DNA of 61,045 bases, filler included, from Dugesia japonica (GCA_001938525.1; 6 parts of 6 records of this genome joined end to end with filler, not necessarily neighbours in it); one strand, 5' to 3'. Shown: positions 17,771-52,084, numbered from the whole stretch's first letter. Numbers and translations: made by a program. The notes: generated by a model not told the origin, from the sequence alone.

Positions 17771-17937
17771 TATAAATAATTGTTTTTAATTGATGGTTAA
17801 TAAAATTATTCTCACTCTATCTTTACGTTACTGTTGATTTCTATAAACCATTGTAAGGAATAATAATCTTTTAACTATACAATTTGTTGTTTGAATTTTT
17901 AATTTTCCATTTTAAATTGACATCCTCATCTTTGTAG

Positions 17938-18341: not shown

Positions 18342-18442
18342 ATTGATTTGTTTTTTTTTATTTACTTGATACTTATTTTTATTATTCAATTAAATTTAAT
18401 GCACTCAGTCTATCGTTAACCTAATAGTTACTATCTGTTTAG

Positions 18443-18799: not shown

Positions 18800-19539
18800 A
18801 TAATTCATAATAAATGTTAAAATTAGTGAATTCTCAATTTCTTTAATAATTACAAAGAAGGGAAAATAATGAACCCAAACCATAGGTATACGAGTGAGTA
18901 CTACAAGCTAACGATGGTAGTCAACTGCTCTATACCGAAGATATAATAAGGGACATTAGATAAATTCTTGAATGGGTCTGATTTTTCCCCAGCCATAATT
19001 TTTCTAACACCAACTCAGGTTGGACCCCAACAATAAGAAAAAAGTAATAATCAATGCTAAGAACAAGGACAATTTATGTATTCTTGTCATTCTCAAAGAA
19101 ATTGAAATTGATAAAAATCATATGAATAATGTAAAAAATTATCCAGAATACATGTCAAAGTTAAATTTTGATAAAAGTGGCATTACAATAAAATTGGCGA
19201 ATACATTATAATTTGTGAAAACAAATCCTTTAGTGTCATTTTTTGAAATCATAATTCAATGATGAAAATGATACTGTTATGAAACATTCAAATCTAGACA
19301 TAATTCTAAAGTAGTTGGTGCTAGGAAAATTTATCTGTTACTATTAAAAAATACCAACAAATTTGGTTACACCACAGTAATAAATTTAAACTAATAAATC
19401 GAGATGTGAAAAAAGATAGTGGGCGAATTCGATCAACGTGGTGTTCTAATTATCTTAATGGATTCCGAGATAATATCGCTTATAATACACATGGACCAAT
19501 GTGATAAAATTCAGACGGGCATCACATAATAAACTATGC

Positions 19540-23179: not shown

Positions 23180-24523
23180 CTATTTGCCAGTCATATTAAA
23201 CATTTCGTAAACCAAATTAAACATTTTATCAACTATAACAGTATGGTTTTTTCTAATCCAACACACAAACTTTCAGTTAAGTTTGTCGAGTTTTAATAAG
23301 ATATGTGTAGATTTTAAAAATCACTGTTTGAATGTTTATGATCAAATTTTCCCGCGCTTTTTAAATGAGTTTATTTGGTCCTTATGGAATGATCAGATCA
23401 ATGAAACAGTAACAACGACACTAAAAATTATTAAAGAATATCTAATGGAAACCGATATAGGTTGATCAGGTTGGTTAAGAAAGAAGGTAAAACTATTGCA
23501 AAGGCTGCTGAAATATTGCAAATTAATCATAGCTTGGCTCGAGTTATAACCAGTAAATTAAAAGAAATTGATATGATTAATTTGCACAAAACTGATGGGA
23601 GCAGAAGAACAGTGCGAAATGACAGTGTTAAATTGCAGATCAAAGCAGCAGTATCTGCTAATCCAGAAATTACTCTCAAAGAAATTCAATTATATTTTAG
23701 ACACGTTTTTGGAGAGAACTACAATATTTCACATTCAACAATAAATTGGTGTCCTGCGGATCTTCAAATTACAATGAAGCAATCACACCGTGAGCTTGAT
23801 CGTCTAAACTCAGAAGATGAAACCCAGCAAAGGCGGGAATATGCTCTCTAGTTTAACACATATTTTCAAAATGACTTTTCAAATGCTATCTTTGAAGATA
23901 AGTCTTCATTCAATCGTCATTTAAAAAAAATCAAAATTGCGATCAAAAGTTGAAACGTGTGCTATTGTAACTATACCAATTGTAAGGGAAAGTCCGTTAC
24001 TTTACTTGTAAGCTTATAAATTAACAGTTTTGTCTATTGTAAAACAATTTCTAATTCAACAGTAAATGCTTCAGTTTTTCTCAGTACCTTTAACAAATTA
24101 TGTGTATATCTAAGAGATGAACTTCATATGAAAAATTCTTGTTTAATATTGGATAACGCACGCATTCATAGGAGAGATTATCTTGGAAAAATTTTATCCC
24201 AATTTAATTTTCAATTTAAATTTCTGTTGCCTTACTCATACATGCTCAATTATATTGAAAATGCGTTTTCAAAAATAAAGATGGGTATAAAATCAAAGCT
24301 AAGATTAGGAGCAATTGGCATACTTTCGGAGTTGATGTCGGAAGAGGCTAGGAATGTTACTTCAATCGATAGTGTTGGTTATTTAAGATATATTCTTTGC
24401 AACATAACTAAATGCACAGATGGTCTTTCTTAGGTCATCAATAAATAGTGCATTTTTATTTAAGTTAAGTTCATTAAGTCAATATATAATTTTTTTGTAA
24501 TTTTTAATATGACTGGCAAAAAA
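23180..24523 (+). mobile_element. IS630/Tc1-like DNA transposon with disrupted transposase
   Basis: TIR core TTTGCCAGTCATATTAAA at both ends, TA-flanked. HTH ORF at 23462-23851; catalytic LILDNARIH..LPYSYMLNYIENAFSKIK at 24128-24433. Confidence 0.88.
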
Positions 24524-24544: not shown

Positions 24545-25960
24545 TTTACAATTGCAATTATTGCGAGAATAATTGTTGGACATAAGCATTGATCGTTTTT
24601 CAGAATTTATTTAAAATAAAGCCTTGATCAAAATTTTTTCTTTTTCAAAATCACATTAAATCCTTAAGCGAATGTAAAAAAAGAGAATTAATACCTTTTG
24701 GTTTAAGAATTCAAAATAAACTTGAGAACACCTTTAATTGTCGCCAATCCGAAGATTTGTCTAAACGGAAAAGTTTTCAGTGGATGACTTTTCATCGGAA
24801 GAAACTTTATAGTGAAATCAATTTTCAGCTAAAAGATAAACCTCTATCTTTTCCTCTTAATAAATTTGATCAAGAAATGTTTAACAAAAGGAAATAAGCT
24901 CTCCCAATAAACCAAAGAAAATTAGTATTCTACTTAATGATAAATTCAAAATTGAAGACAAAATCAAAATAAATTCAAATCAAAGCTTTTGTACAACTGT
25001 TCTTACTTTCAAAAATCTTACTGAAAATACATTCACCGACAATCAAATAAATTTACTTAACAAAGATTCGATCTACATTCCAGCCAATTCAAATATTTAT
25101 GACTCGTCAAATATTGCAATGATTAAAGCTTCCATTTATAACTTAAAATGCCAAAATACAGCAAACGAAACATCTAATGATTCCTTAATTTTTTCATCAA
25201 AATAGAAGTATACACAAACATTCAAACGCACGATACCAACTTATAATTCTTCTATTATGGAAAAACATTGAGGACCTTCAATTTAAACTCTAATAAACAT
25301 AAAAGAACAGCAAGAATAACAATAAAAAGAGCAACGAAAATCAAATTATGAAAGAAATTAAAATTTTAAAATCAATTATCATTACATGAACAGATAAACA
25401 AAAAATTGATAGCTCTATCTGAACAAGCATTCAATGAATTTCTTTATGAACATTTAAATAATTATGAAATAATAGCTCATAAAAGACTACCAACTACAGA
25501 AGAAATTAAATTAAACAAACAATTAAATCAAATAGCAGAAAAATATGAAGACCCAATAAAATCTTTATTTTCAACAATTAAATGTCATGAACCAGTTCCA
25601 TCCTCGATGTACAGTGTTCCTAAAGATCACAAAGAAATAATAAAAAGAAGACCTATTGTAAACGGTAAAATTATATGCAATAAGAAAAATGTCACTTAAA
25701 AAATAATATGCATCATTTTTCAAGAAACATATATAGATGAAACATGCAGAACCATCCGAACAAAAATTAAGGAACACTTGAAACAAAAAGAAAGTAAAGC
25801 CTTCAAACACTTTCAACAAAACATAAAATTTCACCAGGACAACACCACATGGAAAACACTAGGAACAGGCTAAATTTTCATACTACATAGAAATTAACAT
25901 GAAAGATTACTAGTTAAAGAAGGCAATCTTAAAATAAATGTAATTTATAATAATTAAATA
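24545..25960 (+). mobile_element. Penelope-like retroelement, internally deleted (RT and GIY-YIG remnants)
   Basis: PSSMYSVPKDHK..RRPIVN matches the Penelope RT motif PxhYxhPKxHK..RPIV. YIDETCRTIRTKIKEHLKQKESKAFKH (~25730-25810) is GIY-YIG. The terminal sequence is shared with other copies. Confidence 0.85.
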
Positions 25961-28030: not shown

Positions 28031-29286
28031 TTAGGTTGATGGAATATAAATGCAGGTTTTTAATTATTTGTATTTTGCTCAAGTTTAGATCAATAAATTA
28101 ATAAGTTTAAATCAATAAGTTATTTATCATTTGTAATCTTATCTTATGCTCTTTCTAAATATTTATTTAAAATTTATAGTAATTTTGTTTTCTGTCTATA
28201 ATTTGGTTTTTATTCATATTTGTTGAAACGCGATTTCTACAATATTTTCTTCTATGAGTTGAAGCTAGGACGTAATGCCGCTCAAACCACTCAAAACATC
28301 CACGAAGATTTTGGGCGAGTCAAGTATCAAGAAATGTACGGTGCAACGTTGGTATCAGAAGTTTCGTTCTAACAATACCAGCCTCGATGATGAGCCTCAT
28401 GCCAGACATCCATCAGCCATTGATGATGAGAAATTGAAGCAGTTAATCAAAGCTGATTGTCGGAAAACTACATAAAAAGTTGCTGAAGAGGTCTGTACGT
28501 TTACCAATCAACCGTGGTTTGTCATTTAAAGGAAATTGAAAAAACAAAAAAGCTCGATAAGTGGATGACACACGCATTGACCAAACAGCACAAAATCGTC
28601 GTTTTGAAGTTGCATCTTCGCTCGTTTTGCTCAACAAAACCATCCTTTTCTGGAACAATTTATAACGTGCGAAAAAAAGTGGATTCTCTACGACAACTGG
28701 CGACGTTTGGCGCAGTGGTTGAACCGCGATCAACAACCACAACACTTTCCAAAGTCAGAATTTCACCAAAAAAGGGCTATGGGGATTGTTTGGTGGTCTG
28801 CAGCCAGTTTTATTCATCACAGCTTCCTGAATCCGAGCAAAATGATTACAGCCAAAAAATAATGTCAACAAATTGACGAACAGCACCAGAAACTTTAACA
28901 TATGTGTCCAGGATTGAACAATTTTTCTCCATGACAACGCTCTGCCGCACGTCACAGAAGTTGCACGAATTAGACTACGAGACTCTGCCTCATCCTCCAT
29001 ATTTTTCGGACATCTCGCCCCCTGATGTTCACTTTTTCAAGCATCTGGACAACTTTCTCCAAGAAAAAGGTTTCAAAAACCAAGACGATGCTAAAAACGT
29101 CTTTGCCAACGTCATCACCATCAGAACTTTAGATTTCTATACCGGTATAAATAAACTTGTTTCACGTTGGCAAAAATGCGTTGATTCTAGTGGTTTTTAT
29201 TTCGATTAATAAACTTGTTTATAAGCTGAGGTGTACTAATTTAAAGTTGAGATTTAAAAACCTGCATTTGTATTTCATCAACCCAA
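28031..29286 (+). mobile_element. mariner (DD34D) transposon, ~1.26 kb, frameshifted
   Basis: TIRs TTAGGTTGATGGAATATAAATGCAGGTTTTT / AAAAACCTGCATTTGTATTTCATCAACCCAA with TA TSD. Motifs TVQRWYQKFR..LDDEPHARHP, KKLDKW, HPPYFSDISPPDVHFF and RWQKCVDSSGFYFD. Confidence 0.95.
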
Positions 29287-30989: not shown

Positions 30990-31970
30990 CTTCTAATTCT
31001 AAGTTTCAATCTTCTTCAGCCATTCTAATCTTATGGATTTGAGTTTCCCTGCAAAGTTTATAAGCACTTGGTGTGGGCTTATGAATTTAATTATTTTACA
31101 TGAACCTTCATATCTTAAATAGTTTTTATTCAGATTGTGTGGATCCACCTTTACCAATACTTCTTTCCCTTCATTAAATTGTTTATATGTACGTCTGCCG
31201 AATTCATATTTGCTTAACTTTTTAGCCGCTTCATGCAAGTTTTCATCTGCTACTTCCTTCATTTCTTTATGATCTGAACTTTCTTGTTTTAGTAACCTAT
31301 GTAAAACTATCCTTCTTCCAAAGATAATTTCGAAAGGAGATAATCCAGATGATTTCTGTTGAGTCGCATTCATAGCAAATTTTATTCTTGGTAGTAATTT
31401 GTCCCAGCTTGCTTCCGAGCATCCATATTTTATCGTTGTTANNNNNNNNNNNNNNNNNNNNNNNNNNNNNNNNNNNNNNNNNNNNNNNNNNNNNNNNNNN
31501 NNTGGCGATGCGAACTCTTGTTTTATCTCAAATTTATCTGCAAGTGATTGCATTAATTTTCCTTCAAATATCTTTCTTCTATCAGTTAAAAATGACTTTG
31601 GTTTCCCAAAACAATATATACATTGCTCTTTTATTGCATCAACCACTGACGTTTTATCCTGTTTATTCAATTCTACAAAAGAAACTAACTAACTAAATCT
31701 GTCAACAAGGACGAAAACATATTCTTTCTTAGTTTGTGCTTCAGGAAAATGAGCAATATCCATGATAACTCGGTTCTTGGGACCAGACACTCTTTTGTTC
31801 TGCCAGTTTATGTCTTTATCATATTGCATATCATACATTTTTCTAATTTATGTTCTACAATATGTTTCATATTTGGCCAAATATAACTTACATTAAAATA
31901 TTCTGTCAGTTTTTGTCCTCCTACGTGACATAATTCCTCGTGAATGAAATCAATAAGTTCGGGTATCGAT
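30990..31970 (-). pseudogene. pol: Ty3/Gypsy integrase with following polypurine tract
   Basis: IHEELCHVG..YIWPNM..CMIC is the HHCC finger; FGKPKSFLTD..FAMNATQQKSSGLSPFEIIFGR is the core and downstream region. The purine run agaagagag follows the stop. Confidence 0.9.
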
Positions 31971-32428
31971 AGTAGATAGATATGAGCCAGGGCCCCTCGA
32001 GGGGGGGACCCCCACCCCCCGATTTTTTGCCCGCCTACTTTTTGGACTACGCCCCTTTTTGGACTCCGCACCCTTTTTATCTTTTGGACTCCGCCCCTTT
32101 TTATCTTTTTCTCCGCCCACTTTTTTGGACCCCCCTTTTTATCCTTTTCTCCACCCACTTTTTTGGCCACGCCCACTTTTTTATCTTTTTCTCCGCCCAC
32201 TTTTTTGGCCACGCCACTTTTTATCTTTTCTCCGCCCACTTTTTTTGGCCACGCCCACTTTTTTATCTTTTTCTCCGCCCACCTTTTTGGACACGCCCAC
32301 TTTTTTGGCCACGCCCACTTTTTTATCTTTTTCTCCGCCCACTTTTATTGGCCACGCCCACTTTTTTGGCCACGCCCACTTTTTGATGACTCATATTTTT
32401 TTCAAAAAATTTTCTATGTCAGAACAAA
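31971..32428 (+). mobile_element. probable Polinton terminal segment (AGTAGATA start, GC-box tandem repeats) inserted into the Gypsy integrase
   Basis: The integrase frame breaks abruptly at AGTAGATAGAT, followed by a hairpin cccctcgagggg and tandem ttttttggccacgcccac / tatcttttctccgcccac units. The family assignment is inferred from the AG terminus. Confidence 0.5.
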
Positions 32429-32528
32429 NNNNNNNNNNNNNNNNNNNNNNNNNNNNNNNNNNNNNNNNNNNNTTAATTAATTAANNNNNNNNNNNNNNNN
32501 NNNNNNNNNNNNNNNNNNNNNNNNNNNN

Positions 32529-33345
32529 TGCTGGTCGTATGATTTCGGACCTGATCTTATCGTTTCCTTGAAATTATCTATCCTATCCTTTAGATTACCC
32601 TCCTTTGGGGCTTGATCGATAGGTGCTATAGCTCGTTGTCCTTGGTATTCATTGAACATTGCTTCTTTTAGGTGAGGTAACTAACAGTCCTGGTGATCTA
32701 CTTTGTGTGTCAATGTTGATGTACCTGTATTACATGATCCATCTGCTGCTTTGCAGTATGACCTTCCTTTCATTGTTAGATCCTGGGCATCAAAAAATGC
32801 TTCATATTCTTTGAGTTCTACTGTATAAGTTTCGATTGCCACTGCATACGTCCATACCTTTCCTCGTATAGTGTATGTACCATATTCACAGTTACCTTTG
32901 TGTGAGGATATGCTTCCTGCTGCTTATATCGGTTGATCAATTACATGCTCTTTCTTGGCAATAACTTGAGTCCCATGTTTGATGGTAATTTTACCTGTCG
33001 TAAATCCTTCGTCCCATTGTTGTCCTGTTAGATGTACAGTCTGTCTCACTGTTCCTGGATCAATTATCGAAGTATAACTGTGATAACCACAATGAAATAT
33101 AAACGTCTTTACTGTTACTGTACATTCGCGTACTTGGACCTTATAATAATCGGACTCCTGGTACAAGTGGTAAATAGAATTATTATGGAGTGAGATTTTC
33201 TCCGGGTTTGCGTCTGGACATTCTTCTGTATCCACTAATGAGAATACTTCCTTCCCAACTTGCAATTCATCGCAATTGTATGCTAATAGGGCTTCACTTC
33301 TGCCCATCATTAAGAATAACAAGAGTATTGTAGTGGTTAACGCTT
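32529..33345 (-). pseudogene. env: envelope glycoprotein, chuvirus-G-like, N-terminal part with signal peptide; two in-frame stops; truncated by gap
   Basis: ALTTTILLLFLMMGRSEA|LLAYNC..FSLVDTEEC..LYQ..VQVRECTV..FHCGYHSYTS; past the stop it continues in frame as AAGSI..GNCEYGTY..W..AVAIE..YCKAADGSC. The cysteine and motif spacing match chuviral glycoproteins. Confidence 0.8.
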
Positions 33346-33449
33346 GCCATGAATTTCGGCGAGGCCCACGTGTCCAGCCATTCTCAATCTCATTTAACTG
33401 ATCCCGAACAATCCTAGTTGCATTTTCATGAGATGGCTGAGGCTTAGGG

Positions 33450-33850
33450 CATATGGCCTCAATAAACTTTTTCCATCCCCCATGCTGCTTTATCAACGGC
33501 ATTATCTTGTTCTGCATGAGCTCCACTATTGGTAGTTTACTGAGAATGAAGTTTTTTGACGGTTTGCTTCTAGCGATTGATAGGTGTTTTTGATTAATTA
33601 GATGCGCTATAGATACTACTATCCTTCCCTTTGTAGTCTGATCTTGTAATAACTCATCTATTACTCCTTCTAAATAGTCTCTTGTGCCATGACTAGTACC
33701 TTTAGTGGCGGGAAATTTCTTAATGGCTGCTTCTATTTCTTTTACCAGTGGTTTGAGACTATCAGATAGTTGAAATTTCCCAATCCATATCTTTAATTCT
33801 GGATAAAGCATTAGCAATAGTTGCGGTATTACTACTTCAGTTGGCATGTC
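33450..33850 (-). CDS. Bcl-2-like domain within the polyprotein ORF 32924-34801
   Basis: BH1-like YLEGVIDELLQDQTTKGRIVV, BH2-like NKIMPLIKQHGGWKKFIE, and an upstream amphipathic BH3-position helix LSDSLKPLVKEIE, in the correct order and spacing. Confidence 0.72.
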
Positions 33851-34569
33851 ATCATATATCTTTTTGATATCTTTTTGCGATATCGTTGCTAATCGCTTAG
33901 TTTGGTGAGTTATTGATGTTGTTAATCGTTTTTGTTTCAATGCTTCCTCCTCCCCCGGATTTCCTGGGTGTTTCGTTCTTGGTCTGCTTCTATTGCGAGG
34001 TTCAATAATAGTTTCTGCATCTACTCGGGTGCGCACTGGTTTTGGTGGCGCTTCTTCCTCTTCTGTTTCAATTGGATTTTCCATTTCTAGGGGGTGGTTT
34101 GTATCCATTAAATCATCCATTACCGAGGATGGCAATTCCTTTGCTATCCTACTTAATATTGGTGATAATGGTTGTTCCTCTAATACATCTTCCTCGTCTA
34201 GGTCTACCTTGCTAGGATCATATTTCTTGCTTCTAGTTGGCTCTTTGACTTTCATTTCCTCACTTTTTCTAGTTGGAGGTGAGTATCTTGTGATCTGCAA
34301 TTCATTCTCATCTTCTGTTAACTCGTCTGCTGATGGAGATCCGAATATTTCACGTTCCCAATCTTTGTTTGTTTTAGGAGTTTCCTTTGTTTCTCGAGAC
34401 GCTTCTGTACTTCCGGATTGATCTGTTGTAGGTCTTAATATTTGACTAGCCGCTAATTGTGTACGGAGTTTATATGCTTTTAACATACCTGAGGTCTCTC
34501 CCATTATTGATCTTGTTTTGTCTGCTGCCTTATAAGGGTCTGCGTCTTTTCGAGTGAGAGTACATCCTA

Positions 34570-35045
34570 ATTCTGGAAAAATCCACAACGTATTAGGTTT
34601 AACTAAATCTATTTTCATTAGTCCAATCGGGGTGGTATCTTCCACTATTCCATCTTCATCCAAGAGTTTGTGTGGTGGCTTAAATGGTAACTTGTCTCGT
34701 AGGTGCTTTACCATATTGTATACTGGTATCTTTATCGTGATTTTATCTCCCTCTGGATCAATTGTTCGGAATTTGACTTTTAATGGAGTGGTCTGTCCCA
34801 TCTCTGCTTTCTGGCAACCTCATTTGGTCTAGTTCTATTACTTGGTTATAATAGAGTACTATGTCGTCTTCCTGCAATAATGTTTGCATTCCGGTTTCCC
34901 CCTCGTCAAGGCTACGCTGTTGATTCATAAATTTTATAATCCTTTTCCGCAACTTAGCCCATGGTTCATTCATTTGGACCTGCCAACGAATTTCACTTTC
35001 ATCTGAAAATTTGATTATTACGGCCACGGCTTCATTAGTTATCAT
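34570..35045 (-). pseudogene. two tandem SUMO/ubiquitin-like domains (frameshift near 34820)
   Basis: VIIKFSDESEIRWQVQMNEPWAKLRKR..IVLYYNQ.IELDQ..CQKAEM is SUMO/Rad60-like. EGDKITIKIPVYNMVKHLRDKL..LLDEDGIVEDTTPI is Ub-like. Confidence 0.55.
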
Positions 35046-35055
35046 TCAAACTGCT

Positions 35056-38000
35056 TTAATTAATATTGCATCCATTACATCTCCTGGCATTCAGGACTAG
35101 TTGTATGGCTTTGTCATGTCTTAATAGTTCCAAGTTTTCTTCCAAGGTTAAGAGTATTTTCATTATTACTCTCGCCACACTTCCCCATGTTTTACTGTCT
35201 TCCCATAAGTCAATATTTATCTCCATTGTTCTATCGTCGACTTCTTCAAACAATTTCCCACTGTTAATTTCTTGTTCGTATAACCCCTCCAGTTGTTGTA
35301 GTACTTCTTTCATGGATTTTATCGGGCCTGGGGTGTAGTCTTCTGGTTTCTGTATTTGGAGAAATGTATTTTCACCTGGTCTTAATCCTATGTCCAGCAG
35401 ATGTTGTTTTCCTTCAAACTTTATGGGGAATCTCAGATGATCGCTTGTGATTATATAGCTTTTCTGCTGGTCGGCTATATCCAGGGTTTCTATAATTTTC
35501 TGCAATTCCCCAGCTGACGTACTGTTAAAATGTGGTATATGCATGACAGCCAATTCCGGTTTCTTCCTGGGTTTTTTGTTTGGTGTCAGATTTTCTATCG
35601 TGACCTGTAAATCCTCTCTCTTGGCACTTGTCTTCACTGCACCAATATACGGCTTGATCACTGACTCCCATTTGGCACGCTCTTCCTTTGTTATTTCAGT
35701 ATACTTTGCCAGATCCATTAGTAAATTTAATGCCCTCCAAAATGCTGCTCGAGGTATCCTTTCCTGGAAATAACAGAAATCAGAAATTATCTTCGATATC
35801 CGCTCTGTCTGAGGGTAACTGAAGGGGCCAACAAATTCTTGTTTAAATGGTAACAGTCGTGGTTGGACGATGTCCTCCGAGATTTCTTTCTCCTCCTCTT
35901 CTTCATCTGATATTGGGTCTGTGGCTTCATGGTTAATATCCCGAACCATGTTTATTTGGGCTTTGTTTTCTCCATATGTGTTTATGAGTCGCTCATTCTC
36001 TACTGGTAAAATTTCCTGAATATATAGGCTCATCATATTGAATATGAGTTGATCGGTATCCGGCATTTTTGGTATCGGAATGTCTATGGTCATTTTACGC
36101 GGTATTGGTTTGATTTCCGTGATCTCCCCTGGTTTGATATCATGTAGAAAGATTTGGTCCTCTTTCTCGGCTAGTATGATCATTGTTGCTCCTGCCTGCA
36201 TTTTATAGGACTTGAGCGATTTTGGCCATAACCATTTCTTGATCGATTTTATGATATGGTGGATAGTTAATCCTTCCAGAGTTATCATATCTACCTTTTT
36301 TATGCTTCCCTCTTTATTGAGGAGGCTGACTCTGATAGAATAGTTAGATATGGTGGATGTATTTTGTACTTCCTCTTCGTATAAAGTTTTCTCTTTCCAC
36401 CATTGTGCTCGAGCCCACAAGCTGAGCTGTCCATAGGTTGCCAAATCCCGTAGGTTATTCATCATTTTCCAATATACTTTGATATTTACTACCGGCCGAG
36501 TTTCTCGTGTTACTCTTAGTAGATCGTTGATAGCATGAAACGTGGCGGATTCTTCCGTTATTGGTTTCGTGTAGTTCATCCGAATATCACGTATTGTCGG
36601 TGTCCCTTCCGGAAATTCAACTGATTTTGTAGTAATTATTGGCAAGTTATCAATATTCTGTATTTTCCGATTTTCTTTTACTTGTTCCTTTATACCTGAC
36701 AATACCTCGGATACGTATAATTACGTTATTTCATCCATTCGTTCCTCAAGATCTGGTGATGGGTTGGTCCGTGGCTTCTCTTCTACATCTAACTCACATA
36801 TTTCTCCGGGCATGGCATTGGAATATGTGTTTGTCCTCGTCGTCGGTCTCAACTAATTTGCCATTTATGAACAGAGGTACCATGTTTAGCCCTTATTCTC
36901 GCCTCTTATCAGTAATGGCATCCATTAAATCCATCATGGTTATTCTTTGTGGTTTTAATCGGCTATATTTAGTCAGTTCCTGTTCATTTTTACCTAAATT
37001 CAAATATAATTTATAGTCCTGAATTTTGGAAGTTGCCAATATTTCTTCGGCATACTTTTTTCTAGTCATGAGCCATTGATTCTCAATTTCCTCCGGTATT
37101 TCCAGTCCATCATATATGTCGTAAATTCTATTCATTATCATCCAAAATGTCTCTCGGGGTAACTTCTTCTTCTCAATCTGTACTCGGTTAAACATTTCCT
37201 CCACCTTACGCATCGCTACTACCTTTCTTGCTGGCATTTGCCGCATCCTTATCATGTTGCATTTACCTTCTCTTCTCTCTAATCGTTGTTTGAGAAAATC
37301 TTTACGCGTCATCAATAACTGTTTCCTCTCCTCCTTTGTCAGCTTGTCTTTCCTCCCTAGTACTGTGGAAAGTATCTTTATTTTAATAGGTTCCACTTCC
37401 TGTTTATATAGATATTCCATTTCTCCCATGATTTCTAATGCCGATCTTCCGGTTTTCGTTATCCATATGTCATAGTTGATACCAGGGTGTTTGTCTAATA
37501 TTAAAATTTCAATTTCCTCTCCTGGTTTTACCCCAAAATCGTATAGATGTCTTTTTCTGGCATTAAAATCTACTATAGCACTTGGAGTACATACCTATTT
37601 ATCGGTTATACATGTATAGCCTGCTTGATTAAGCGCCGCTTCTAGATCTTTTACCATTAATTCGGTGAGTGTCAGTTTCATATTTCCTTCTGGGTTATAC
37701 AACCATAATTGGTAGTCTGATAATCCCATGTTGGATATTACCCAATCATAATGCACTGGTAACCATTCTGTCCAATCGCTTTCATAATCGGTGATCAGTT
37801 GTATAACTTCCAATAACTCAACCAATCGATTGGTAAACTTTAGGTATACATCTTTCTTTATCGTATCATGGAGTTTCTGGGCGGCTACCAGTATCTCATC
37901 AATTCGGACTAAGGATAGTCGTGATGCTTCATTTTGTTCCAATTCCGCATAGTCCATTAGTCTAACTTTCTCAAATCTTTTCCGTAGGTAGTTTTGAGCC

Positions 38001-38620
38001 TGGAGGGGAACTATTTCCTTTAAGAATGTTTCTTCGAGATTATGATATAACTCGTCCGTTTCTATTTCTTGAATTACTATTTGTGGTCGGAATACCAAAT
38101 ACCAATTTATCAATTTAATTATTGTAGTTTCATGAGGTCGTTCCCCGTAATAAATTAGATTCCTGTCATCTGAAAGAATATTGATTCCTATATTACCTCT
38201 TTGCAATCTGTGCCTATTCCACTTTCCATTCCATTGTTGCTGAACGTTAAACGGTGGTAATTCGAGAAACGGGTTTATAGTCATACCCTTGATACCATTT
38301 ACTTCCCTACATTTTATCTCGTTAATAGCCTCTTTCAAATGTCGTACCGTCATTCCTTTTAGTGGTAGCTTTAGTCGTTTTGGAATGACCTCCGGGTTGT
38401 TATGCCATACATATTGAATTTCGAATTCGTAATCTTCTAGCCTAGTTTCTTTATAAAGCTCGGCGATATAATCCGATATTGTTTTCTGCCAGTTAACTTT
38501 TACTTTTGCGTGTACCTGTGGGTGCTGGTATAATTGAAGTAACTGATTCATCACTCACCTTCTTCCGGTGGTTGTCGTTGATGTTTATATCGTTTTATAG
38601 ATGATTTCATTTGCTCACTC
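35056..38620 (-). pseudogene. tandem array of five diverged ~230-aa helical plus ubiquitin-like repeats (one polyprotein broken by a few stops/frameshifts)
   Basis: Recurring motifs: F/YWxxMNxL..W helix; TVRHLKEAI / MVKDLEAAL / TMMDLMDAI / TIHHIIKSI / SAGELQKII; NLIYYGERPHE / HLYDFGVKPGE / HIFQC.MPGE / QIFLHDIKPGE / HLLDIGLRPGE; then LYxQEI. ORFs 37595-38554 and 36893-37429 are in the same frame across a single TAG. Confidence 0.7.
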
Positions 38621-38829
38621 GAATTCTGGTGACGTAATCAGTAATCGTTTTCGAGTATCTTCCATTTCGGTAACCTCCGTTGTTTCATCATGTTGGTTAT
38701 AAATTTGTCTATGTGTTCNNNNNNNNNNNNNNNNNNNNNNNNNNNNNNNNNNNNNNNNNNNNNNNNNNNNNNNNNNNNNNNNNNNNNNNNNNNNNNNNNN
38801 NNNNNNNNNNNNNNNNNNNNNNNNNNNGT

Positions 38830-40240
38830 TGCACTTTGTGGTACACATTGTCAAAAGTACTTTGATGCACTAAATTGACTTGTCCCTTGTTTTGATTTAC
38901 TAGTTGTCTTAATCTCTCATTTTCCTGCATTAGATTATCCAGATTTGTATTCGGATTCCGATTATAATTTGTTTGGTTACGTTCTGACATTCTTTTGCCA
39001 TATGCCCTCTTCTGTTACACTTGTAACAGACCGTTGGATTTTTCAAAAAACACGTTTCTATGTTGTGGTTGGTTCTCTTGCAATAAGTAAAAAATCGGTT
39101 GTTGTTATTATTATTGCCTCTACTTCTACAATCTCGCGCAATATGCCCCTTTCTTTCACAGGAATTGCATTGCATATCTCGATTATTTTGCCAGTTATTC
39201 CGAGGTGCATTAAATCCTCCACCATTTCCTCTGGGATAGTTAGGTCTATCATTCCGGTTATTCCGTTCCTGCCCTGGGGTCAGGGTTTTCATCATTGATT
39301 GCGTATTGGGTATGAAATCTGATATCCGTGTAGTTTCCTCTGTCTGTCCTTCTACTTTGAATATTCGTTCTGACGGTCTATCTGCTACAATTCGCAATGT
39401 TGCCAGAGCGTCTTGTAGAGTCACTGGCTTACTCAATTTTACCATTAGTTTGGTGTTCTCGTCACATAATCCGTTCAAAAAGATGGCGAGTACTTGACTG
39501 TCTTCCAGCTTGTCTCCTAAGGCTAATTTCCCACGCCTTTTGAGTTCCATCATATACGCTTGTGGAGTTTCTCCTCTTTGTTGTTTTCGATTGGTAAATT
39601 GTTTGAAATCCTGGCCAGTCAATTTTAAATTTTGGAAATTATCGGTTAGTATTTTCACAACCTCTTCCCATTTGTCGGGAATGGCTTCCATGCCCTTAGT
39701 GTGATCCCAGAACACCGTTTTGGCTACTCCGGTCAAGTAAGCTGGCAATCGCTTCCTTTTTGCTTCCTCGTCCCATCCACAGGTTTTGGCATACATTTCG
39801 TAATTTTGGATAAGTTCATCCAACTTTTCTGGTATTCCGCTAAAATATTCGCCATCGAATTTTATTTTCCACTCCGGTTGATGGTTTTCGGTTTTGGTTG
39901 TCATGTTGTTGTCCTTTGCTGTGTTGGTTTCTATTTTCGGGTTTTCAGTTATAGCTGGGGTGGTTTTGTTTNNNNNNNNNNNNNNNNNNNNNNNNNNNNN
40001 NNNGGTGCTTCCTTGGTTACTACCTATTATCTCTGTCTCTTCTGAGGTATAACTTAGTTCGCTTAGTCGGTTTTTATCCGTAGGTGGATTATTATGGGTT
40101 CGCTTCTGGATTATTTGATTTTCTTTGTCACTTGGGCTACTATTTGAACTGATGGCTTCTAATGTTTTGGTTTTGGATAGCGAAGTTGATTTGTCGAATT
40201 CTGATTTCTTGAACGAACAAATATTCTCTTCCTGGTCCAA
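38830..40240 (-). CDS. gag: retrotransposon Gag (capsid and zinc knuckles), frameshift near the 3' end
   Basis: FSG..LDELIQNYE..GWDEEAK..LPAYLTGVA..W; RKQQRGETPQAY; CNSCERKGHIARDC and CYKCNRRGHMAKEC, plus a degenerate middle knuckle. It continues in frame 38709-38990, and decayed coding sequence extends upstream to ~40450. Confidence 0.93.
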
Positions 40241-41007
40241 ATAAAATGACGATTTCTTGAATTTCCTTGATTACCTTTGTCGGTTAAGTTGGGCTTCTTT
40301 TAGAGTTGAGCTTGGGGTAGATATTCCGGATGTAATAGACCTTGCAAGTGGTTTTCTATTTTCCGAGTCGGAATCTATTTTGTCAGAGTTCAGCTTGTTG
40401 AGTGCTTACTGTATTTCGGTTTTGGTTTTGTAATACTTGTAGTTTAACTTTCTAGAATAAAATTTACTTTTAATTGTCTTTATTTAGGAGACAATCACTC
40501 CTCTTCTTGATTTTAAACTTTCTTTAATATCATGCTGCTCTACGCTTGTCATCATAGCCCCATAATCATCTTCCTTAAATTTTTTCCTTTTTTTCCTTAA
40601 TTAAGTCTTCCTTCAATCTTCCTGTAATGCTTCCTTTATTTCTTCCTAATTAACGCCAGGTTATCTCTTCCTAAATGTGGGAGTACCCATTTTTCTGTAG
40701 TATCGGCGAACTCTTCTGGCTTTCTTTCTTTTCTTCCTTTTAATATGCCGGGGTAACAGTGCACACTTTTCCTAAATTTATGGGGGAGTACCGAGATTTT
40801 TCTGAGGGATCGGCGGCCCCGTTTGGAGTACCCTTTTCGTGCAGGCGAACGCTTNNNNNNNNNNNNNNNNNNNNNNNNNNNNNNNNNNNNNNNNNNNNNN
40901 NNNNGGGATCGGCGGCCCCGTTTGGAGTACCCTTTTCGTGCAGGCGAACGCTTCCGGCTTCTCTTCCTTTAATGCTTCTTCTAATCAAGCTTCCTTTAGT
41001 GTGCTTA

Positions 41008-41285
41008 ACTACGTGGCCTTCCTTTAACATACTGGTTAATGTACTTAGGACTACACGTATCTTCCTTCCTTGCGTAGACTTCCTTTAAATTCTTCCGAGG
41101 TTTTCCCTCCCATACGCAGGCTTCCTTAATTATGCTTCCTTATTTTCCTACGTGGTCTCCCGTTAATATACTGGTTAATGTACTTAGGGCTTCGCGAAGT
41201 CGTCCTTTAATTTGCTTCCTTCCTACGTGGTATCCCGTTCACATACTGGTTAATGTACTTAGGGCTTCGCGTAGCCTTCTTTTAA
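41008..41285. repeat. three ~65-bp tandem-like repeats in the element leader
   Basis: ctacgtgg..atactggttaatgtacttagg at ~41010, 41150 and 41223; on the minus strand these read (E/V)(A/V)LSTLTS.L..(D/G/Y)HV. Confidence 0.7.
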
Positions 41286-41931
41286 TATATGCGCATCACA
41301 TATCTGGTAATACCCAATTACTTCTTCAGTTATAGTCATTAGACAACTGTTGCGGTTGCTTTCTACAAAGGTGATCAATCTTCTGATTGCAACTTACCAG
41401 TTGGGGATCGCTATTTTCCATAACTGTGTCTGTAATAAATATGACTGGATATTCTTCCTATAATCTTCCTGAAGTTTTTTTCAAGATTAGCTTCCTTAAA
41501 TTTCTTCCTGATTAACATCCTTAAATTTATCTTCCTTTATTTTCCTTTAATTTATTTTCCTTTAATTTATCTTCCTTTACTGTGCTCCTGGTTACGTTTC
41601 CATGGTGACTTCCGTGGATATCTCGACATGATCTCTGAAAATATAAAATTACAAGTTTTATTGATTTTACTTCCTGATTTTACCTGTTTTGTTATTATTC
41701 TTATTCCTTTTTATTTACTAACTCCTTATAATCGTCTTAATTTCATATCATCCTTAACTTCCTATTTTCATAATCTGCTATTTTCATAAGTGATTACATA
41801 ATTTTATAATTTCGATATTTTATTTATTTTCATCATTTATTTAATCATTTTACTAATAATATTACACATAATAATAATCTTTATGCTCTTATTTCCCTAT
41901 TCTTACGGGGTTTTATTTCCTGAAAATTTTA

Positions 41932-41954
41932 TTCAAATCCCGGCTGAGCCCCCA
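41932..41954 (-). promoter_or_regulatory. primer-binding site, tRNA-Pro
   Basis: Minus strand TGGGGGCTCAGCCGGGATTTGAA is complementary to a tRNA-Pro 3' end (..TTCAAATCCCGGNNGAGCCCCCA) and lies 7 nt from the LTR end. Confidence 0.88.
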
Positions 41955-41961
41955 AAATTCT

Positions 41962-43368
41962 TGTTGGGGTCCCACCTGAGTTGGATGAAGAAAAGTGTGG
42001 CTGGAGAAAAACAGCCCTCAGGGGAACCCTTTCAAGAATTTGACCTAACGCCCCTAGGTTAAGTATTCAGCATATGGCGGTTGACCTCTCTCTTAATGGG
42101 AGGTGCGCGCCCATAGGCCTTTGAATTTGGGTTCACNNNNNNNNNNNNNNNNNNNNNNNNNNNNNNNNNNNNNNNNNNNNNNNNNNCCTTTGAATTTGGG
42201 TTCACTCTTTTCCCTGTTCCCACGGCTTCATCAAAGATTAGAACGAATTGAACAATAAAACTTTATTTTAAATGAAAATTAGATAAGATCCAAAGCGCCT
42301 GGATCTAACCACTGGGCTATATCGGTCGTCAAAATGTTGAACGCCGCCGAATCATCATTGTCGTCCTATTGGACCCCTGTAGGGTTTCCTAGTTGGCGGG
42401 AAAGGTCGGATATATATTGTTTGAGGAAATCGATTTTCCTCTGCAATAGCATTTTATTTTCATTTTCTAACGCTTTTGTCTACACCGCCAAGTCCTTCTG
42501 CTTTTTCACAATCTGATCACGTTTTTTGATCAGACGATCTTGCTGGTCTGAATGCTTAATCAATGCTCTATCCGCTTTCTGCTTTAAGTGGCGCTCTAAG
42601 AGTAGACGGCGCATTATGCNNNNNNNNNNNNNNNNNNNNNNNNNNNNNNNNNNNNNNNNNNNNNNNNNNTAGTTGGCGGGATAGGTCAAATATATATTGT
42701 CCTCTGCAACAGCATTTTATTTTCATTTTCTAACGTCTTTGTCAGCACCGCCAAGTCATTCTGCTTTTTCACAATCTGATCAAGTTTTTTGATCAGACAA
42801 TCTCGCAGGTCTAAATGCTTAATCAATGCTCTATCTGCTTTCTGCTTTACGTGGCGCTCTAAGAGTAGACAGCGCATTATGCGATGGCACCTTCGCAGAC
42901 TGTTTGGAAAATTAATGCGTGTCACTAAAAGAAGATATATCATTAAATTATTTCTGTAAAACAGACAAAAGATAATCAAGTGAATAATTCAGAAGGAAGA
43001 ATGTAGGTATAAAAAACGTTTATTTGTAAATTTACAAGTATCAAGGACGCGAGGTCTGGCTACCCTTGTTGACCATTAATGGTTCGAGGGGCATAGCAGC
43101 TTTTAATCGATGGACGTCCTGTACCAATTGGTTTTCGCGGTCTTNNNNNNNNNNNNNNNNNNNNNNNNNNNNNNNNNNNNNNNNNNNNTTAATTAATTAA
43201 NNNNNNNNNNNNNNNNNNNNNNNNNNNNNNNNNNNNNNNNNNNNCCAGATTTAAATTCATCGCGGAGTTTTACCAGGTCAATTACCCTAGACTTAATTTT
43301 ATATAAAGTTCGACCCCCTAGATTTAAATCATACCAGAATTCAACCCACCTAAGGTAAAACCCCAACA
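41962..43368 (-). repeat. 5' LTR of the giant element (true length unknown; spans a scaffold linker)
   Basis: On the minus strand it starts TGTTGGGGT at 43368 and ends ACCCCAACA at 41962. It contains ORF C (42279-42924) and the tail of ORF B (43041-43144). Confidence 0.8.
42279..42924 (-). pseudogene. LTR-encoded ORF/exon C in the 5' LTR (partly duplicated across a gap)
   Basis: After cttttAG: TRINFPNSLRRCHRIMR.LLLERH.KQKADRALIKH..WLDPGALDLI*. Confidence 0.75.
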
Positions 43369-45832: not shown

Positions 45833-48515
45833 CTAAATTAAAGATTTAAATTTATTACTTTATTATAAATGATGATTATGATATGGATTTAAAGATCATT
45901 TTGATTGAAAGCTCATATATTATTAAAATTTAGATCGACAAAATATTTAATCATTTAATTAAAATCTAGGTACACGAATTAAGTGAAGCCGAAACCATAT
46001 TGACTGTTTAAAACCTTTTACACAGCTGTTTCTGTCAAGTCAGTACCAGTCTTTAATGGAATGTGAATTTACTGGAGAGCCGTCTCTATATTTCCCGATA
46101 ATCTTTCAATTTTCTTGATGAATTGTATTCTTTCGAATAAATCTAATTAGACTATTTTACTTGCGATCTCTTAGCCGTAATCTAGAAGATGAACCATTCG
46201 TTACAATCGTACCAGTGGCAGCTTTGCTTGTTTCATTAACATTGTTCCAAATTTATTTGTTACAGATAATTTACGTAATTTGTTAATCATAAAGAAAAGA
46301 ATTTACTAAGCCTTGCAACACTGAGATTGTACCGACCAGTTCGTCTTTATCTACTATGTTCTATTTAAATAAACATTGATTTATCACAATACTGAAATAA
46401 ATTAAGAGCAATTATATTAATTGACGAAATTGAATATGGTTTCATTAATCACGATGAAACATTAGATATTTTTAAATAAAGTCCTCAGAGAGAATTATGA
46501 TAAAGGCAATCGCATATTAACTATAATTTAATATCATCATTATAAATCCTGAATAAATCAAATATAAAAATTTAGAAATAATATAACATTCGATTAAAAA
46601 TACGATCATACCAACAATAATATAATTATAAATAAAATTTACTATTTTCAAGGAATTTTTTATACACATGTCAAAATCAGCATTAGAAAATTTATAGGAA
46701 ATGTCCACCACCACCTAAAATTACGTTGCATCATTTTATTAGTGTCAATTTTTATTCATTTCATCTTTATATTTATCCCGAGAATCGATATCATACCAGA
46801 TCTAACCATATTTCATTATGGTTCACCTCTCGGTAGTCAATATCAATATCAGTTTATAGAGTCTAATACTTTCTACATTTATTCATCGTATTTCGTGATT
46901 CTATTCGTCAGTATATTTAAAATTTAGGTTTAAACACTCTTTTATCACACCTATCAATTCATTCCCTCAATCTCCATTTATTCTCAGATTATCGTTATCT
47001 ATTCATAGTTCATGTTGTCGAAAAATGAATCAATTGGGCAATTATCAGCTTCATACTATCTTAACTGACATTTGCATCAAGTGAAAGTGGGGAATGATCT
47101 CGTTTTTAACTTTAAACTTACTCTGAGTTTGAACGGCTCTAGGCATTCCACGCCACACCCGAATCACGATTTATCCCGATCGTCCGATGATCAGTTCTCT
47201 CGGCAGCGTCGGTGACTCTTCCCAGGGAGTGCAGGCGCCTACCGATTTCATTTAGGGTCGTTTTACGGTAGGGCGATAGAAGCTCTAGATTGACAAAAAA
47301 TGTCATGCACACCCACGCTGGAACTCACTTACAATTCAACAAGGTAGATAAATTATAGCATTTTATTTAAGCATTAAACATCAACCATCGTTTATTAAAT
47401 GTCATTCATTTTGGATCTTGCTCTTAATTGAAGATGACGTTTGCTTTGATTTTCTTTTACACGCTTTCATTCGGGAAGAATATGATTGTATATGATTTAT
47501 TCGTTTGAGAATGCTATTTCATCAATACAATAAACTGCGGAATTCTGGTGGCGATCTAGCTTTGTTCATTGCTATCTACTATTTCCTTTAGATTTTTTCA
47601 TCTAGGGTTGTGGTCCTCATAACGAGCGTTGGACATCGCAATGTTCCTTCTGGATCCTCATACCCTGCATTGGTCGTCATAGTTAGTACTTGGAAATCCA
47701 CTCCCATCATTGTGTCGCAATCTCCACTCGCATCATTCCGTTGACTAACACTTACCATTTGAGCTATCATCTTTATCGTTCAGAGGACTTTATTTTTGTC
47801 ATAGGAGAGCAGTCATTCGCAGTATTCGGTAAGATTCACCTTTTTTGTTTTAGAACCATCCGGTTTCGAGTAATACTTTTATTCTTCGCAAGCAGCTTTA
47901 TTTTTATCAGTCGCGATCAGTTTTATCATTAACTTCTTTATTAGGAGCATATTTATCATTGGCATCTTTATTACATGCATCATTATCATTAGAAAATTCA
48001 TTTGGAATTGTCATTCTTGCATATCGTTCAGGAAAAAATCGTTCATTTAGTTTTCAATTCTTCATTTCGATCTTTAGTTATAATTCAGAGACCCTCAGTT
48101 GTCGAAGTGCGAGATCCATGAAGCAAAACTAAACGTAAATTTTAAAGAAAAATTAATCTTACCGAAATACAAGATGGCCGAAAAAATGGCTGAGTGGATT
48201 GGTTTTTTTTCTTGTAGAAATTAAAGCAACAAAAATAAACTGATAATTTTAATTGCCAGGGCTTATATTTGTNNNNNNNNNNNNNNNNNNNNNNNNNNNN
48301 NNNNNNNNNNNNNNNNNNNNNNNNNNNNNNNNNNNNNNNNNNNNNNNNNNNNNNNNNNNNNNNNNNNNNNNNNNNNNNNNNNNNNNNNNNNNNNNNNNNN
48401 NNNNNNNNNNNNNNNNNNNNTAAACCTTTAATTTCGGGTTCTATATTTTCCCTATTATTATCCAAGAAAATAAACTACAACTCTGATTAAAAATTTTTAT
48501 TAAAAGTAAACATAT

Positions 48516-48898
48516 TTAAAGCAGATCCAAGGCTCCTGGATCAAGCCACTGGTCAGGGGACGTTATTTCAAAATTGAATGCAGCGATGTCCTCATCGTTG
48601 TCCCACTGCATGGTGTTGGGGTTGCCAATCTGCCTCGATAAGTCCGCAATATATTGTTTTAGGAATTCTATTTTTCGCTGTAGTAATTGTTTATTCTCTG
48701 CTTCCAATGCCTTTGTCTGGATGGCAAGGTCATTTTGCTTTTATACTATAGCGTCCAATCTTTTAATTAGCTTATCTCGTTGGTCTAAATGTCGTAAGAG
48801 GGCCTGGTTGGTTTTTCGTTTCAGGTGCCTCTCTATCAGCAGACGGCGCAGTAGGTGGTGGCATCTACGAAGATTGTTTGAGAAATGGATACGAGTCA
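48516..48898 (-). pseudogene. LTR-encoded ORF/exon C, one in-frame stop
   Basis: After ttgttttAG: TRIHFSNNLRRCHHLLRRLLIERHLKRK..(TAA at 48741)..LLQRKIEFLKQYIADLSRQIGNP..WLDPGALDLL. Confidence 0.8.
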
Positions 48899-49038
48899 CT
48901 AAAACAAATTATCATTAATTTTAGTAAAATTTCCTCAATGGAAAAGAACATAAATCTGATGAAAATAACAAAAAACAAGAAATCCACGAGACAGTTCAAA
49001 CGAGAAAATTTATTAACACAAAAGAGGTGGCCTCCAAA

Positions 49039-49397
49039 TTAATTCTTAGGGGTTTGGGTGCTTTTCTCAACCATTAAAGGTTCTAGTGGCATGGACGCCT
49101 TCAGCTTCAGAACATCACCTACCAGTTTATTTTCTCGGTCTTGGTAGGACCGGATCATCTCAACCAAGGACTCTACCTGCCCCTTCCACACTCTCTCTTG
49201 TGCATGGGAGGCCTCGACTTCCTTTCGGAAAGCCACACATTTTTTTCGGTATCGGCTTACTTTACTATTGGCGTTGGCTGTATCCGCATCCCACTTACGC
49301 TTGGCGAGACGATACAGGTCCCACGTCATCTCGCGGTCCTCGCTGTCATCACGCATTTTTTTCGTCGGAGCCGAACTTCGATTTAACGATGAGTGCA
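49039..49397 (-). CDS. LTR-encoded ORF/exon B, intact, coiled-coil-like
   Basis: A 119-aa open frame that starts at an AG|TG junction rather than an ATG; homologous to 17938-18341; AATAAA downstream. Confidence 0.8.
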
Positions 49398-49622
49398 CTA
49401 GTAGTTACATATCAATACGAGCAAGAATCAGAAATTTATGCATCCAGATCAAAATATATATGTATAACTTTTCTTTTAAGTTAGTTTAGTGAAATATCTA
49501 AATTTGGGTCTGCTTTATAAAAGAAGAGCTGTAAATATTAGTTGAAGATTCGCATTACAATAATAACAACAAGCATATATTCTAATTTGAAAAATTATAG
49601 TATACATGGGTAATTTAATAAG

Positions 49623-50027
49623 TCAAGGAGTGGGGTCTGTGTTTTCTAAAGCGCCACCACTGGCCTGATTTCGCAGTTCCCATAGAGTATTACCAAGATC
49701 TAATGAAAATCTAGTACCTCGAGGAAGGTGGGCAATCGACACAGGTAACAAAGACGGCCCATTTTGCCATTGATTAAATGTCTGATTTGTTACTGGATCA
49801 AAAAGGGGGGTTCGGTGCATAACTTCTTGGGTGCGATCGGGACCGACCCATTCAAAGAAAGCTTGGCGCTCTGCAGCCGCCCATTCTCTTTCGTTATCCC
49901 CATCTTCCTGGGTTAAGTTGGAATAATCCGCCAGGATACCCGCATTTCGGTCATGTGGGTTTTTGTATCGTTTAAAAATGGTACGCCCTGTGCGACGATC
50001 CCATAGTAGCTCCCATTTATGTTCCAT
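49623..50027 (-). CDS. LTR-encoded ORF A, intact, 134 aa, unknown function
   Basis: ATG-initiated ORF preceded by an acceptor-like taatgtAG; conserved at protein level with 17347-17770. Confidence 0.78.
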   Translation of the reverse strand: MEHKWELLWDRRTGRTIFKRYKNPHDRNAGILADYSNLTQEDGDNEREWAAAERQAFFEWVGPDRTQEVMHRTPLFDPVTNQTFNQWQNGPSLLPVSIAHLPRGTRFSLDLGNTLWELRNQASGGALENTDPTP

Positions 50028-52084
50028 ATTTGTTTGTTTATTTCCTACATTAATAGTTAATAAAATTTCTTTTATTTAATTAGGTTGAAGTACATTTAGG
50101 TAATTAAATAGTGATATTTTAGAAAACGTAAATTATGATAAAACACGGGTTTTCATTTATAAACGAAGCATAGCATCACTATTAGTCTAACCAATCTCTA
50201 CTAAAAGAAATTCATCATAAATTCAGATACAGTGGTTATTCTTCAGCGATCTCCACAATAGATTCTAGGGGGAACATCTCAACGAAACACTGAAGGTCTG
50301 TCTCGTCGGGATGTTCCACCCGGCCTTTGGTTNNNNNNNNNNNNNNNNNNNNNNNNNNNNNNNNNNNNNNNNNNNNNNNNNNCGGATTGGCGTTGTTTTC
50401 TTATTTTTCGTAAAGTATCACGCAATACTGCTGGCATTATCTAAGGAAACAAAAAAATATAACAATAACATCGTTAAAACCATCTTGCTATTCGTTTACC
50501 CGATAATTTAATGTTATTGTACTATAAATACGAGGTTGAGACGCTTCCTTACACTCAAAGATAAATTGTTAAATAAAATCCTATTTTAGAATCCCTTTTG
50601 GTGTAGCACCACCTGGTTCTTTAAAATATCATGATTGAACTAATGGACGCCTCTATTACTCAGATACTGAATCATTAACGAGTTATGGACCACATAGGGT
50701 TGAGATTAATCATAACAGTATTTGAATAACTATGCTGGTAAATAGAGAATTAATTCAATGATCGGTGGAATTCCTCTACAGACTTATTTATTTCAGTCCT
50801 TGTCAGTTACAAAATCTACTTTTACTGATGACAAAAATCCAAGGGTGACTTCAATGACATAAATCTTACTGCGGTTCATAATACATAAAACTACGGCTAG
50901 CCCTTTCTAAACAAAAATAAAACAAAGGTGGTCCTACTGACCAAGGTTTTTATTTTCTAAATTACTTTATTTCATAAAAAATTTTAGTGCAGGAATCCTA
51001 GTTTTTGTCAACACAAGATAATAATTGATTCAAATCAATGTGGGTTTAAATTGATATTATTTGATAATACCGAGGCCAGTAAAACTACTCCACACTCTTA
51101 TTAATATTACTGTCCGTAATTATCGCAAAGGTAACCACAATAGAGACAATAACACTCCTCATAATCATACCGCTAAGGCCGGTATTAGCTGATAAGTCTA
51201 ACACCGACAACAACGATACTCATGATGATGAGATCAATTACCCGACTATGGTTATACTTGGACCAACTAACAGCTCGATATAAGTACTGACAACAGGATA
51301 TTAAGATAAATTGGAATTTCTTATTATAATAATAATATAGCAATAAAATATTATGGAAGGAAAATCAGGCCTTGGTTAAAAAATTTGTTTTTTATATTTC
51401 TGCTCAAACCGGATGCTTGGCAATTTAGTTACTCTTCTCTTCTCGTTTGCAGATACACACTGACGAGTTAGGTGGATTGCACAACTGTAGCCATGCATAC
51501 TCCGCTGGTGGTATGCAAACCATCGATTGATAAATTCGATAACAGATTTATGTAAATCCTTATGTGGACTATACAATAATATAGACATGCAGCAGAACAT
51601 GAAATAGTTTCATATTAGACAAGGAAAGTCTAATGCAATTCTCAATCTGGTGTAAACACGGGAATTCACAGAAAAATATAGTGAATTGATGATCGGCTGC
51701 CTATGGAAAATAATTGAATGATCGAACCCAATCCTTTCACAAGCCAAGCGCATCCACTATTACCGATCTTATCATTTCTCAGCANNNNNNNNNNNNNNNN
51801 NNNNNNNNNNNNNNNNNNNNNNNNNNNNTTAATTAATTAANNNNNNNNNNNNNNNNNNNNNNNNNNNNNNNNNNNNNNNNNNNNAAAAAATGAAATCATT
51901 TAAAAATAAAATATTTTCTTAAATACTTAAGAAATATAAATGATGTAATAATATATAATAACATCACCTTTTTTATCAAGAAAAATGAATTATAAATAAA
52001 TATTTTTGTAATCAGAAGTTTATTCTTTAAATGAATTTAAAATTTACAATGTAAGTTACTTATACACAAGGTTTGAAGTATCGA

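Follow-up and report, generated by a model that had tools for sequence, protein, structure and literature searches.

A decayed env-bearing LTR retroelement in Dugesia japonica, most likely of the Burro kind, with a five-unit repeat array and candidate coding blocks in its LTR

Positions 32529 to 43368 of the window (the whole 61,045-nt stretch of Dugesia japonica DNA analysed here, filler included) carry on the minus strand, in this order, a long terminal repeat (LTR), a tRNA-Pro primer site, gag, five tandem repeats, a Bcl-2-like domain, and the beginning of an envelope glycoprotein (env). We give a probability of roughly 0.85 to the following reading: the stretch is what decay has left of the 5′ half of an LTR retroelement that bears env and occurs in many copies; it most likely belongs to the Burro (GYPSM1) kind, and its ancestors, while active, likely expressed a single, very long polyprotein. 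The combination of an entry protein with apoptosis and ubiquitin mimics in one retroelement open reading frame (ORF) is already published, so this main point changes little; the added detail lies in the five-unit array and the LTR blocks, which make the element a variant.

Anatomy and State of the Element

The element is an island of 39% GC, bounded on one side by a scaffold gap (32429-32528) and on the other by an (ATT)n run that follows 43368, in a window that is an AT-rich eukaryotic scaffold with many gaps. What is visible comes to one LTR and 10.8 kb in all, and a "giant" size is accordingly an extrapolation rather than a measurement. Assembly gaps interrupt it at 38719-38827, 39972-40003, and 40855-40904 and at three places within the LTR; the stretch 38718-32529, which contains all the repeats, the Bcl-2-like domain, and the env part, is gap-free. 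Between 40270 and 32529, ORFs span 7226 of 7742 nt (about 93%, one 59-nt overlap being counted twice), the longest survivors having 631 and 554 codons, and the Bcl-2-like domain and the start of env share one ORF (32927-34819). An earlier, sequence-only reading of this DNA had described a coding run broken by few stops: the run itself holds, but about 10 in-frame stops can be counted in it between 40.55 and 32.53 kb, and the frame changes at least four times. At least two of the stop codons stand at sites where nearly all other copies read otherwise, which points to private decay of this copy. This copy of the element is dead.

The primer site starts 7 nt past the LTR, and the 20-mer before CCA equals the 3′ end of the ARAGORN tRNA-Pro gene in 29 of the 30 loci scanned, out of 79 listed. 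In gag, Pfam recognizes Retrotrans_gag (E 0.0085) and zf-CCHC (E 3e-8), with two clear CCHC knuckles and a degenerate one; the gag frame extends back across three stops to a Met near 40552, and it matches the gag of P0007, a relative described below, at E 1e-12. The leader that separates the primer site from gag has no Pfam match in three frames with X at stops. The Bcl-2-like domain is found by Pfam on the single sequence at E 0.0074, its family profile reaches Bcl-xL at E 6e-6, and against a profile made from relatives only it scores 40 bits, when the best of 1000 shuffles gives 7.6. The env part, which covers the first third of PF24664, matches this family at E 2.5e-19 (1.2e-31 with X at stops) and has two stops and 8 Cys in its 252 residues.

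On these grounds, much of the sequence-only reading is borne out: the LTR, tRNA-Pro primer site, and gag that it had placed on one strand are all present, and the Bcl-2 and glycoprotein folds that it had proposed are recovered by profile searches. A signal-like stretch and the glycoprotein are likewise there, where it had seen the end of the element, but they do not end it, as relatives continue into protease, reverse transcriptase (RT), RNase H, and integrase.

Table 1. Features of the element and of related LTRs in the window
Feature	Coordinates	Strand	Basis or remark
5′ LTR as assembled	41962..43368	-	9-bp terminal inverted repeat, TG...CA
End of candidate LTR coding block A (remainder in gap)	43047..43144	-	30 codons compared with the 49-kb LTR copy
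Candidate LTR coding block B, basic/coiled-coil-like	42279..42924	-	107 codons compared with the 48.5-kb copy
Primer-binding site, tRNA-Pro, 23 nt	41932..41954	-	Match to ARAGORN tRNA-Pro genes
Long non-coding leader with short tandem repeats	40553..41931	-	About 1.4 kb
gag, capsid-like domain and CCHC knuckles	38930..40552	-	Pfam
Repeat unit 1	37985..38554	-	First helix in broken stretch upstream or missing
Repeat unit 2	37355..37939	-	One internal stop
Repeat unit 3	36700..37243	-	Profile match 36908-37243; rest by eye, pieces across stops/frame changes
Repeat unit 4	35971..36564	-	Modelled as three helices and a beta-grasp domain, closed by a long helix
Repeat unit 5	35245..35820	-	Repeat profile
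Probable SUMO/ubiquitin-like (Ubl) domain	34761..35045	-	Flanked by frame changes
Possible further Ubl-like domain	34541..34819	-	Profile of relatives' Ubl-position stretches
Bcl-2-like domain, BH1-like and BH2-like motifs	33440..33800	-	Pfam, family profile
Hydrophobic signal-peptide-like stretch	33284..33349	-	44 residues past BH2-like motif; common to relatives
Monjiviricetes-type fusion glycoprotein (env), first ~250 residues	32529..33283	-	PF24664; cut by scaffold gap
Solo LTR of a diverged sister family	16496-19032	+	Complete, 2537 bp, TG...CA ends, 4-bp target duplication ATAA
Third LTR relic	about 48420-50330	-	Blocks 0, A, B; ends not found

Relatives and Abundance

A full HMMER scan returned 89 relatives, 19 of which were scanned with Pfam. 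P0007 unites in one protein gag, CCHC, a weak ubiquitin match (E 0.03), a Bcl-2-like stretch, and env, its gag and Bcl-2-like stretches being identified by direct match. Bcl-2 precedes env in P0002, P0005, and P0026; env is followed by proteases in P0003 and P0008, and a single protein joins env to protease, RT, RNase H, and integrase in each of P0011, P0012, P0017, and P0039. The profile of the Bcl-2 stretch scores in 8 of the 89 relatives, 7 of which were used to build it, and the Pfam scan of the 19 lists no dUTPase match. At least two retropepsin-like domains follow env in P0003, P0008, P0017, and P0021. The 2627-amino-acid polyprotein P0011, which runs from env to integrase, has an NCBI entry as a hypothetical protein in a metagenome bin assigned to Flavobacteriaceae; the bin likely contains eukaryotic DNA here.

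A tree was built from 59 env N-termini, the other 30 of the 89 being dropped for short coverage. In it, the env of the element falls into a clade of 26 rows (100/99) that contains all the long polyproteins of the 59 and lies apart from 33 mostly free-standing glycoproteins; the closest env in the comparison is 41% identical. The family is very abundant in the host species: between 22,102 and 29,195 DNA contigs per run (three runs, organism A) fall on the stretch. For organism B, the number is 4,708. Such counts measure abundance and not copy number. These contigs cover all 30 bins of the stretch, most being less than 95% identical to it, and no single contig spans the whole.

Comparison with Burro and Other Known Elements

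Burro/GYPSM1 elements are giant gypsy-like LTR retrotransposons of Dugesiidae (PMC6431247, citing Grohme 2018 and Jurka 2007). They encode Gag (retrotrans_gag, two to three CCHC knuckles), a Ubi2/SUMO-like motif, a BCL2-like motif, env, and pol; env lies in frame between gag and pol and matches mononegavirus fusion glycoproteins of arthropods and fish, and the pol part follows in frame with protease, dUTPase, RT, RNase H, and integrase (PMC6431247). Their ORFs are 4,873-5,140 amino acids long, accessory ORFs are also present, and with two LTRs they exceed 30 kb in all; they have been interpreted as proviruses interfering with apoptosis and ubiquitination, and decaying fragments of them were reported in D. 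japonica, a third planarian species (PMC6431247).

The order gag, Ubl, Bcl-2, env of the present element matches this description point by point: gag has its knuckles, a predicted beta-grasp (Ubl-type) domain stands between Gag and BCL2, a BCL2-like motif is present with env in frame after it, and the copy number is high. TG...CA ends, a tRNA primer site, and, in a related solo LTR, a short target-site duplication are those of a Ty3/Gypsy LTR element. The anatomy and the earlier view are supported, namely that the element resembles a provirus and that one ORF of it carries cargo directed at apoptosis and the ubiquitin pathway; such a lineage is no new concept, as the same order and reading are in print for Burro (PMC6431247). 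The element departs from Burro in having five tandem units of predicted helix bundle plus beta-grasp instead of one Ubi2/SUMO motif, and in its candidate coding blocks inside the LTR, which go unmentioned in section 7 of PMC6431247, where accessory ORFs are mentioned.

Anti-apoptotic cargo on a planarian Burro element, which the sequence-only reading had mentioned, is indeed reported: the B-IAP of Burro1, with its RING-BIR region, is anti-apoptotic (Lee et al. 2026 Dev Cell, cited in PMC13465017). Here too, cargo of an anti-apoptotic type would sit on a giant planarian LTR element; however, that of Burro1 is RING plus BIR, when the visible cargo of ours is Bcl-2-like. Anakin elements, which are BEL-Pao elements with a chuvirus glycoprotein (PMC7642597), likewise carry the same broad glycoprotein family on an LTR element, but they are Pao-type, whereas the present env lies in frame after gag and cargo and within the clade of in-polyprotein envs. 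Membership in Anakin was considered and rejected, env being in frame after Bcl-2 and in a separate env clade.

The Five-Unit Array and the Single Ubl-Like Domains

The array consists of five diverged repeats of about 200 amino acids each. Six aligned pieces were each compared with a profile built from the remaining five and score 22-55 bits, when the best of 500 shuffles reaches 6.5-12 bits. The AlphaFold model of repeat unit 4 (predicted local distance difference test, pLDDT, 74) predicts that the unit is a three-helix bundle followed by a beta-grasp (ubiquitin-like) fold; no diglycine follows the predicted beta-grasp. The repeat profile scores in none of the 89 relatives, and no internal repeats precede env in any of the 7 long ones. 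Protein searches with the repeat unit gave no match, in libraries that are mostly microbial, so that such blanks say little. The tandem array is not described in the excerpts of PMC13465017, PMC13238120, PMC12440569, PMC8532177, PMC11410931, and PMC7642597; more broadly, neither a tandem Ubl array nor LTR-borne exons were found in the literature on these elements, covered mostly through listings, and the figures and supplements on Burro (including Figure 2A of PMC6431247) may show them.

For the probable SUMO/Ubl-like domain, the Atlas leads are Rad60-SLD and ubiquitin (0.86-0.87), a low-confidence model gives strand-strand-helix (mean pLDDT 56), and there is no Pfam match, including to Ubi2/SUMO (PF11976). 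The possible further Ubl-like domain matches P0001 at E 5e-4, and its score against the profile of the relatives' Ubl-position stretches is reached by 2 of 1000 shuffles, as the best of 6 tests. Of the Ubl array and SUMO/Ubl domain announced by the sequence-only reading, the array therefore holds as five repeats with a predicted beta-grasp, but the leads behind a SUMO/Ubl label for either of the two single domains are weak.

Coding Blocks in the LTR

The LTR ends read TGTTGGGGT...ACCCCAACA. As assembled, the LTR measures 1.4 kb with its three gaps, which is not its true length; the related solo LTR is complete, and its end is 72% identical to the 3′ end of the element's LTR. The third LTR relic shares 65-70% DNA identity with the element's LTR, and its block 0 is a 134-codon ORF with an ATG. 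Blocks 0, A, and B are present, each now broken, in the solo LTR; in the element's own LTR, block B and, of block A, only the end are visible, and the LTR end, block B, and block A follow each other in the same order in the solo LTR. Block B is partly doubled, with halves 85% identical on either side of a 50-N gap, either by a true duplication or by an assembly merge.

Among the LTRs of sister families in the window, blocks 0, A, and B are conserved at the protein level. Synonymous difference (pS) is 0.73-0.97 and non-synonymous difference (pN) 0.17-0.42 in 7 of 7 pairwise stretches, although a translated search was used to choose four of these and the mirror frame on the antisense strand gives a weaker copy of the signal. 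Identity is 0.32-0.45 at third codon positions, when first and second positions reach 0.51-0.87. In the element itself, pN and pS are 0.17 and 0.97 for block A, and 0.22 and 0.90 for block B. These values support the view that the blocks are coding sequence under purifying selection. A pyrimidine-rich AG precedes them at a homologous place and in the same codon phase (2 of 2 LTR copies for A, 3 of 3 for B), and blocks A and B may be alternative last exons behind these splice-acceptor-like sites; no spliced read was seen. The LTR-encoded accessory exons of the sequence-only reading are thus upheld as selected coding sequence, but exon status is only inferred.

In complex retroviruses, accessory genes overlap the LTR. 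The small blocks found here, in U3-like sequence behind splice-acceptor-like sites, resemble this arrangement; however, they have no sequence likeness to those genes, and their splicing is conjectural. The 4-bp target duplication is visible only around the solo LTR. Both LTRs with a visible 5′ flank sit after ATAA (43369 onwards; 16492-16495), two cases in AT-rich DNA, and the element is inserted in an (ATT)n microsatellite.

Weighing the Alternatives

Several points weigh against the assignment to Burro: RT, integrase, the 3′ LTR, and the total size lie beyond the gap at 32429-32528; the excerpted Burro text names a single Ubi2/SUMO-like motif and no array (PMC6431247); MATH, BIR, RING, and ankyrin have no Pfam match in the part present, the 5′ half only; the assignment rests on likeness to a published description and not on Burro consensus sequences; and the functional steps discussed below are all conjectural. 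A rival reading is an independent gag-cargo-env-pol lineage, with its own cargo and sharing with Burro no more than a wider clade, which would account for a repeat unit unmatched in the 89 relatives and in protein searches, for a nearest env at only 41% identity, and for the lack of a MATH match. We deem this unlikely, since the order of gag, Ubl, Bcl-2, and mononegavirus-type env is that of Burro, the blanks from mostly microbial libraries are uninformative, and Burro cargo, which includes MATH/TRAF, RING, BIR, and ankyrin, is known to vary between species (PMC6431247).

That the assembly is a chimera joining pieces of different repeats is more improbable still, even if the scaffold comes from short reads with gaps and lacks a contig across the whole stretch. 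Summed contig depth in the LTR body (42.4-43.1 kb) falls far below that of the internal part, and near 41970 and 42007 many contigs depart from the LTR; the low depth suggests that LTR bodies vary among copies, or that this part of the LTR was merged from another subfamily. However, the run from the repeats to env is gap-free, the parts from gag to env are arranged alike in P0007, and the solo LTR keeps the order of LTR end, block B, and block A. What is left of the caveat concerns only the LTR body and the junction between gag and the repeats. Least probable of all, and very hard to credit, is a domesticated locus still making Bcl-2-like or Ubl proteins for the host: long ORFs are kept (631 and 554 codons) and Burro1 cargo is reported to benefit its host (PMC13465017), but gag, the repeats, and env together have about a dozen breaks, the pieces lack an evident start codon or promoter, and related copies number in the thousands.

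Proposed Mechanism and Implications

The element would work like Burro, and every testable Burro feature is either found in it or leaves the matter undecided. The LTR would drive a full-length RNA, and tRNA-Pro would prime its reverse transcription. The full polyprotein may have reached about 4,000-5,300 amino acids, within Burro's reported range, an estimate that adds the relatives' env-to-end lengths to the 2,400 codons that precede env. The hydrophobic stretch that follows Bcl-2 could be an internal signal threading env into the endoplasmic reticulum, so that Gag and cargo would stay cytosolic, and perhaps it also anchors the Bcl-2 domain at the membrane. Beyond the membrane anchor of env, the chain would be back in the cytosol, where pol would lie; cleavage into the separate parts would fall to signal peptidase and to the protease of the element. 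The Bcl-2-like domain would most likely bind BH3-type partners and keep the host cell alive. Because no diglycine follows the predicted beta-grasp, the repeats may be a multivalent binding scaffold or decoy rather than conjugated modifiers, and the LTR blocks, as alternative last exons, might yield small accessory proteins.

A bolder proposal, which we advance tentatively and consider doubtful, is that of a Burro lineage with a five-module, non-conjugatable poly-Ubl decoy array (without counterpart in the searched libraries) and alternatively spliced accessory proteins from LTR exons, which would be an invertebrate counterpart of complex retroviruses, the gag-Ubl-Bcl2-env-pol design perhaps reaching well beyond planarians. 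The unannotated half of Burro polyproteins may consist of the repeated helix-bundle and beta-grasp module, and selected LTR-borne exons, if true, would be candidate accessory proteins in a class of elements tied to stem-cell survival.

Other Features of the Window

Just past the scaffold gap, at window positions 31980-32390, a unit of about 42 bp is repeated in tandem, one strand being G-rich and the other C-rich. Pieces of integrase and RNase H genes of the ordinary gypsy type lie at 30999-31790 (minus strand), 4690-5580 (minus), and 57300-58020 (plus). Decayed ORFs at 23435-24433, 28487-29209, 10029-11290, 21635-22015, and 24885-25820 (plus strand) resemble by eye Tc1/mariner-type and pogo-type transposases and Penelope-type elements.

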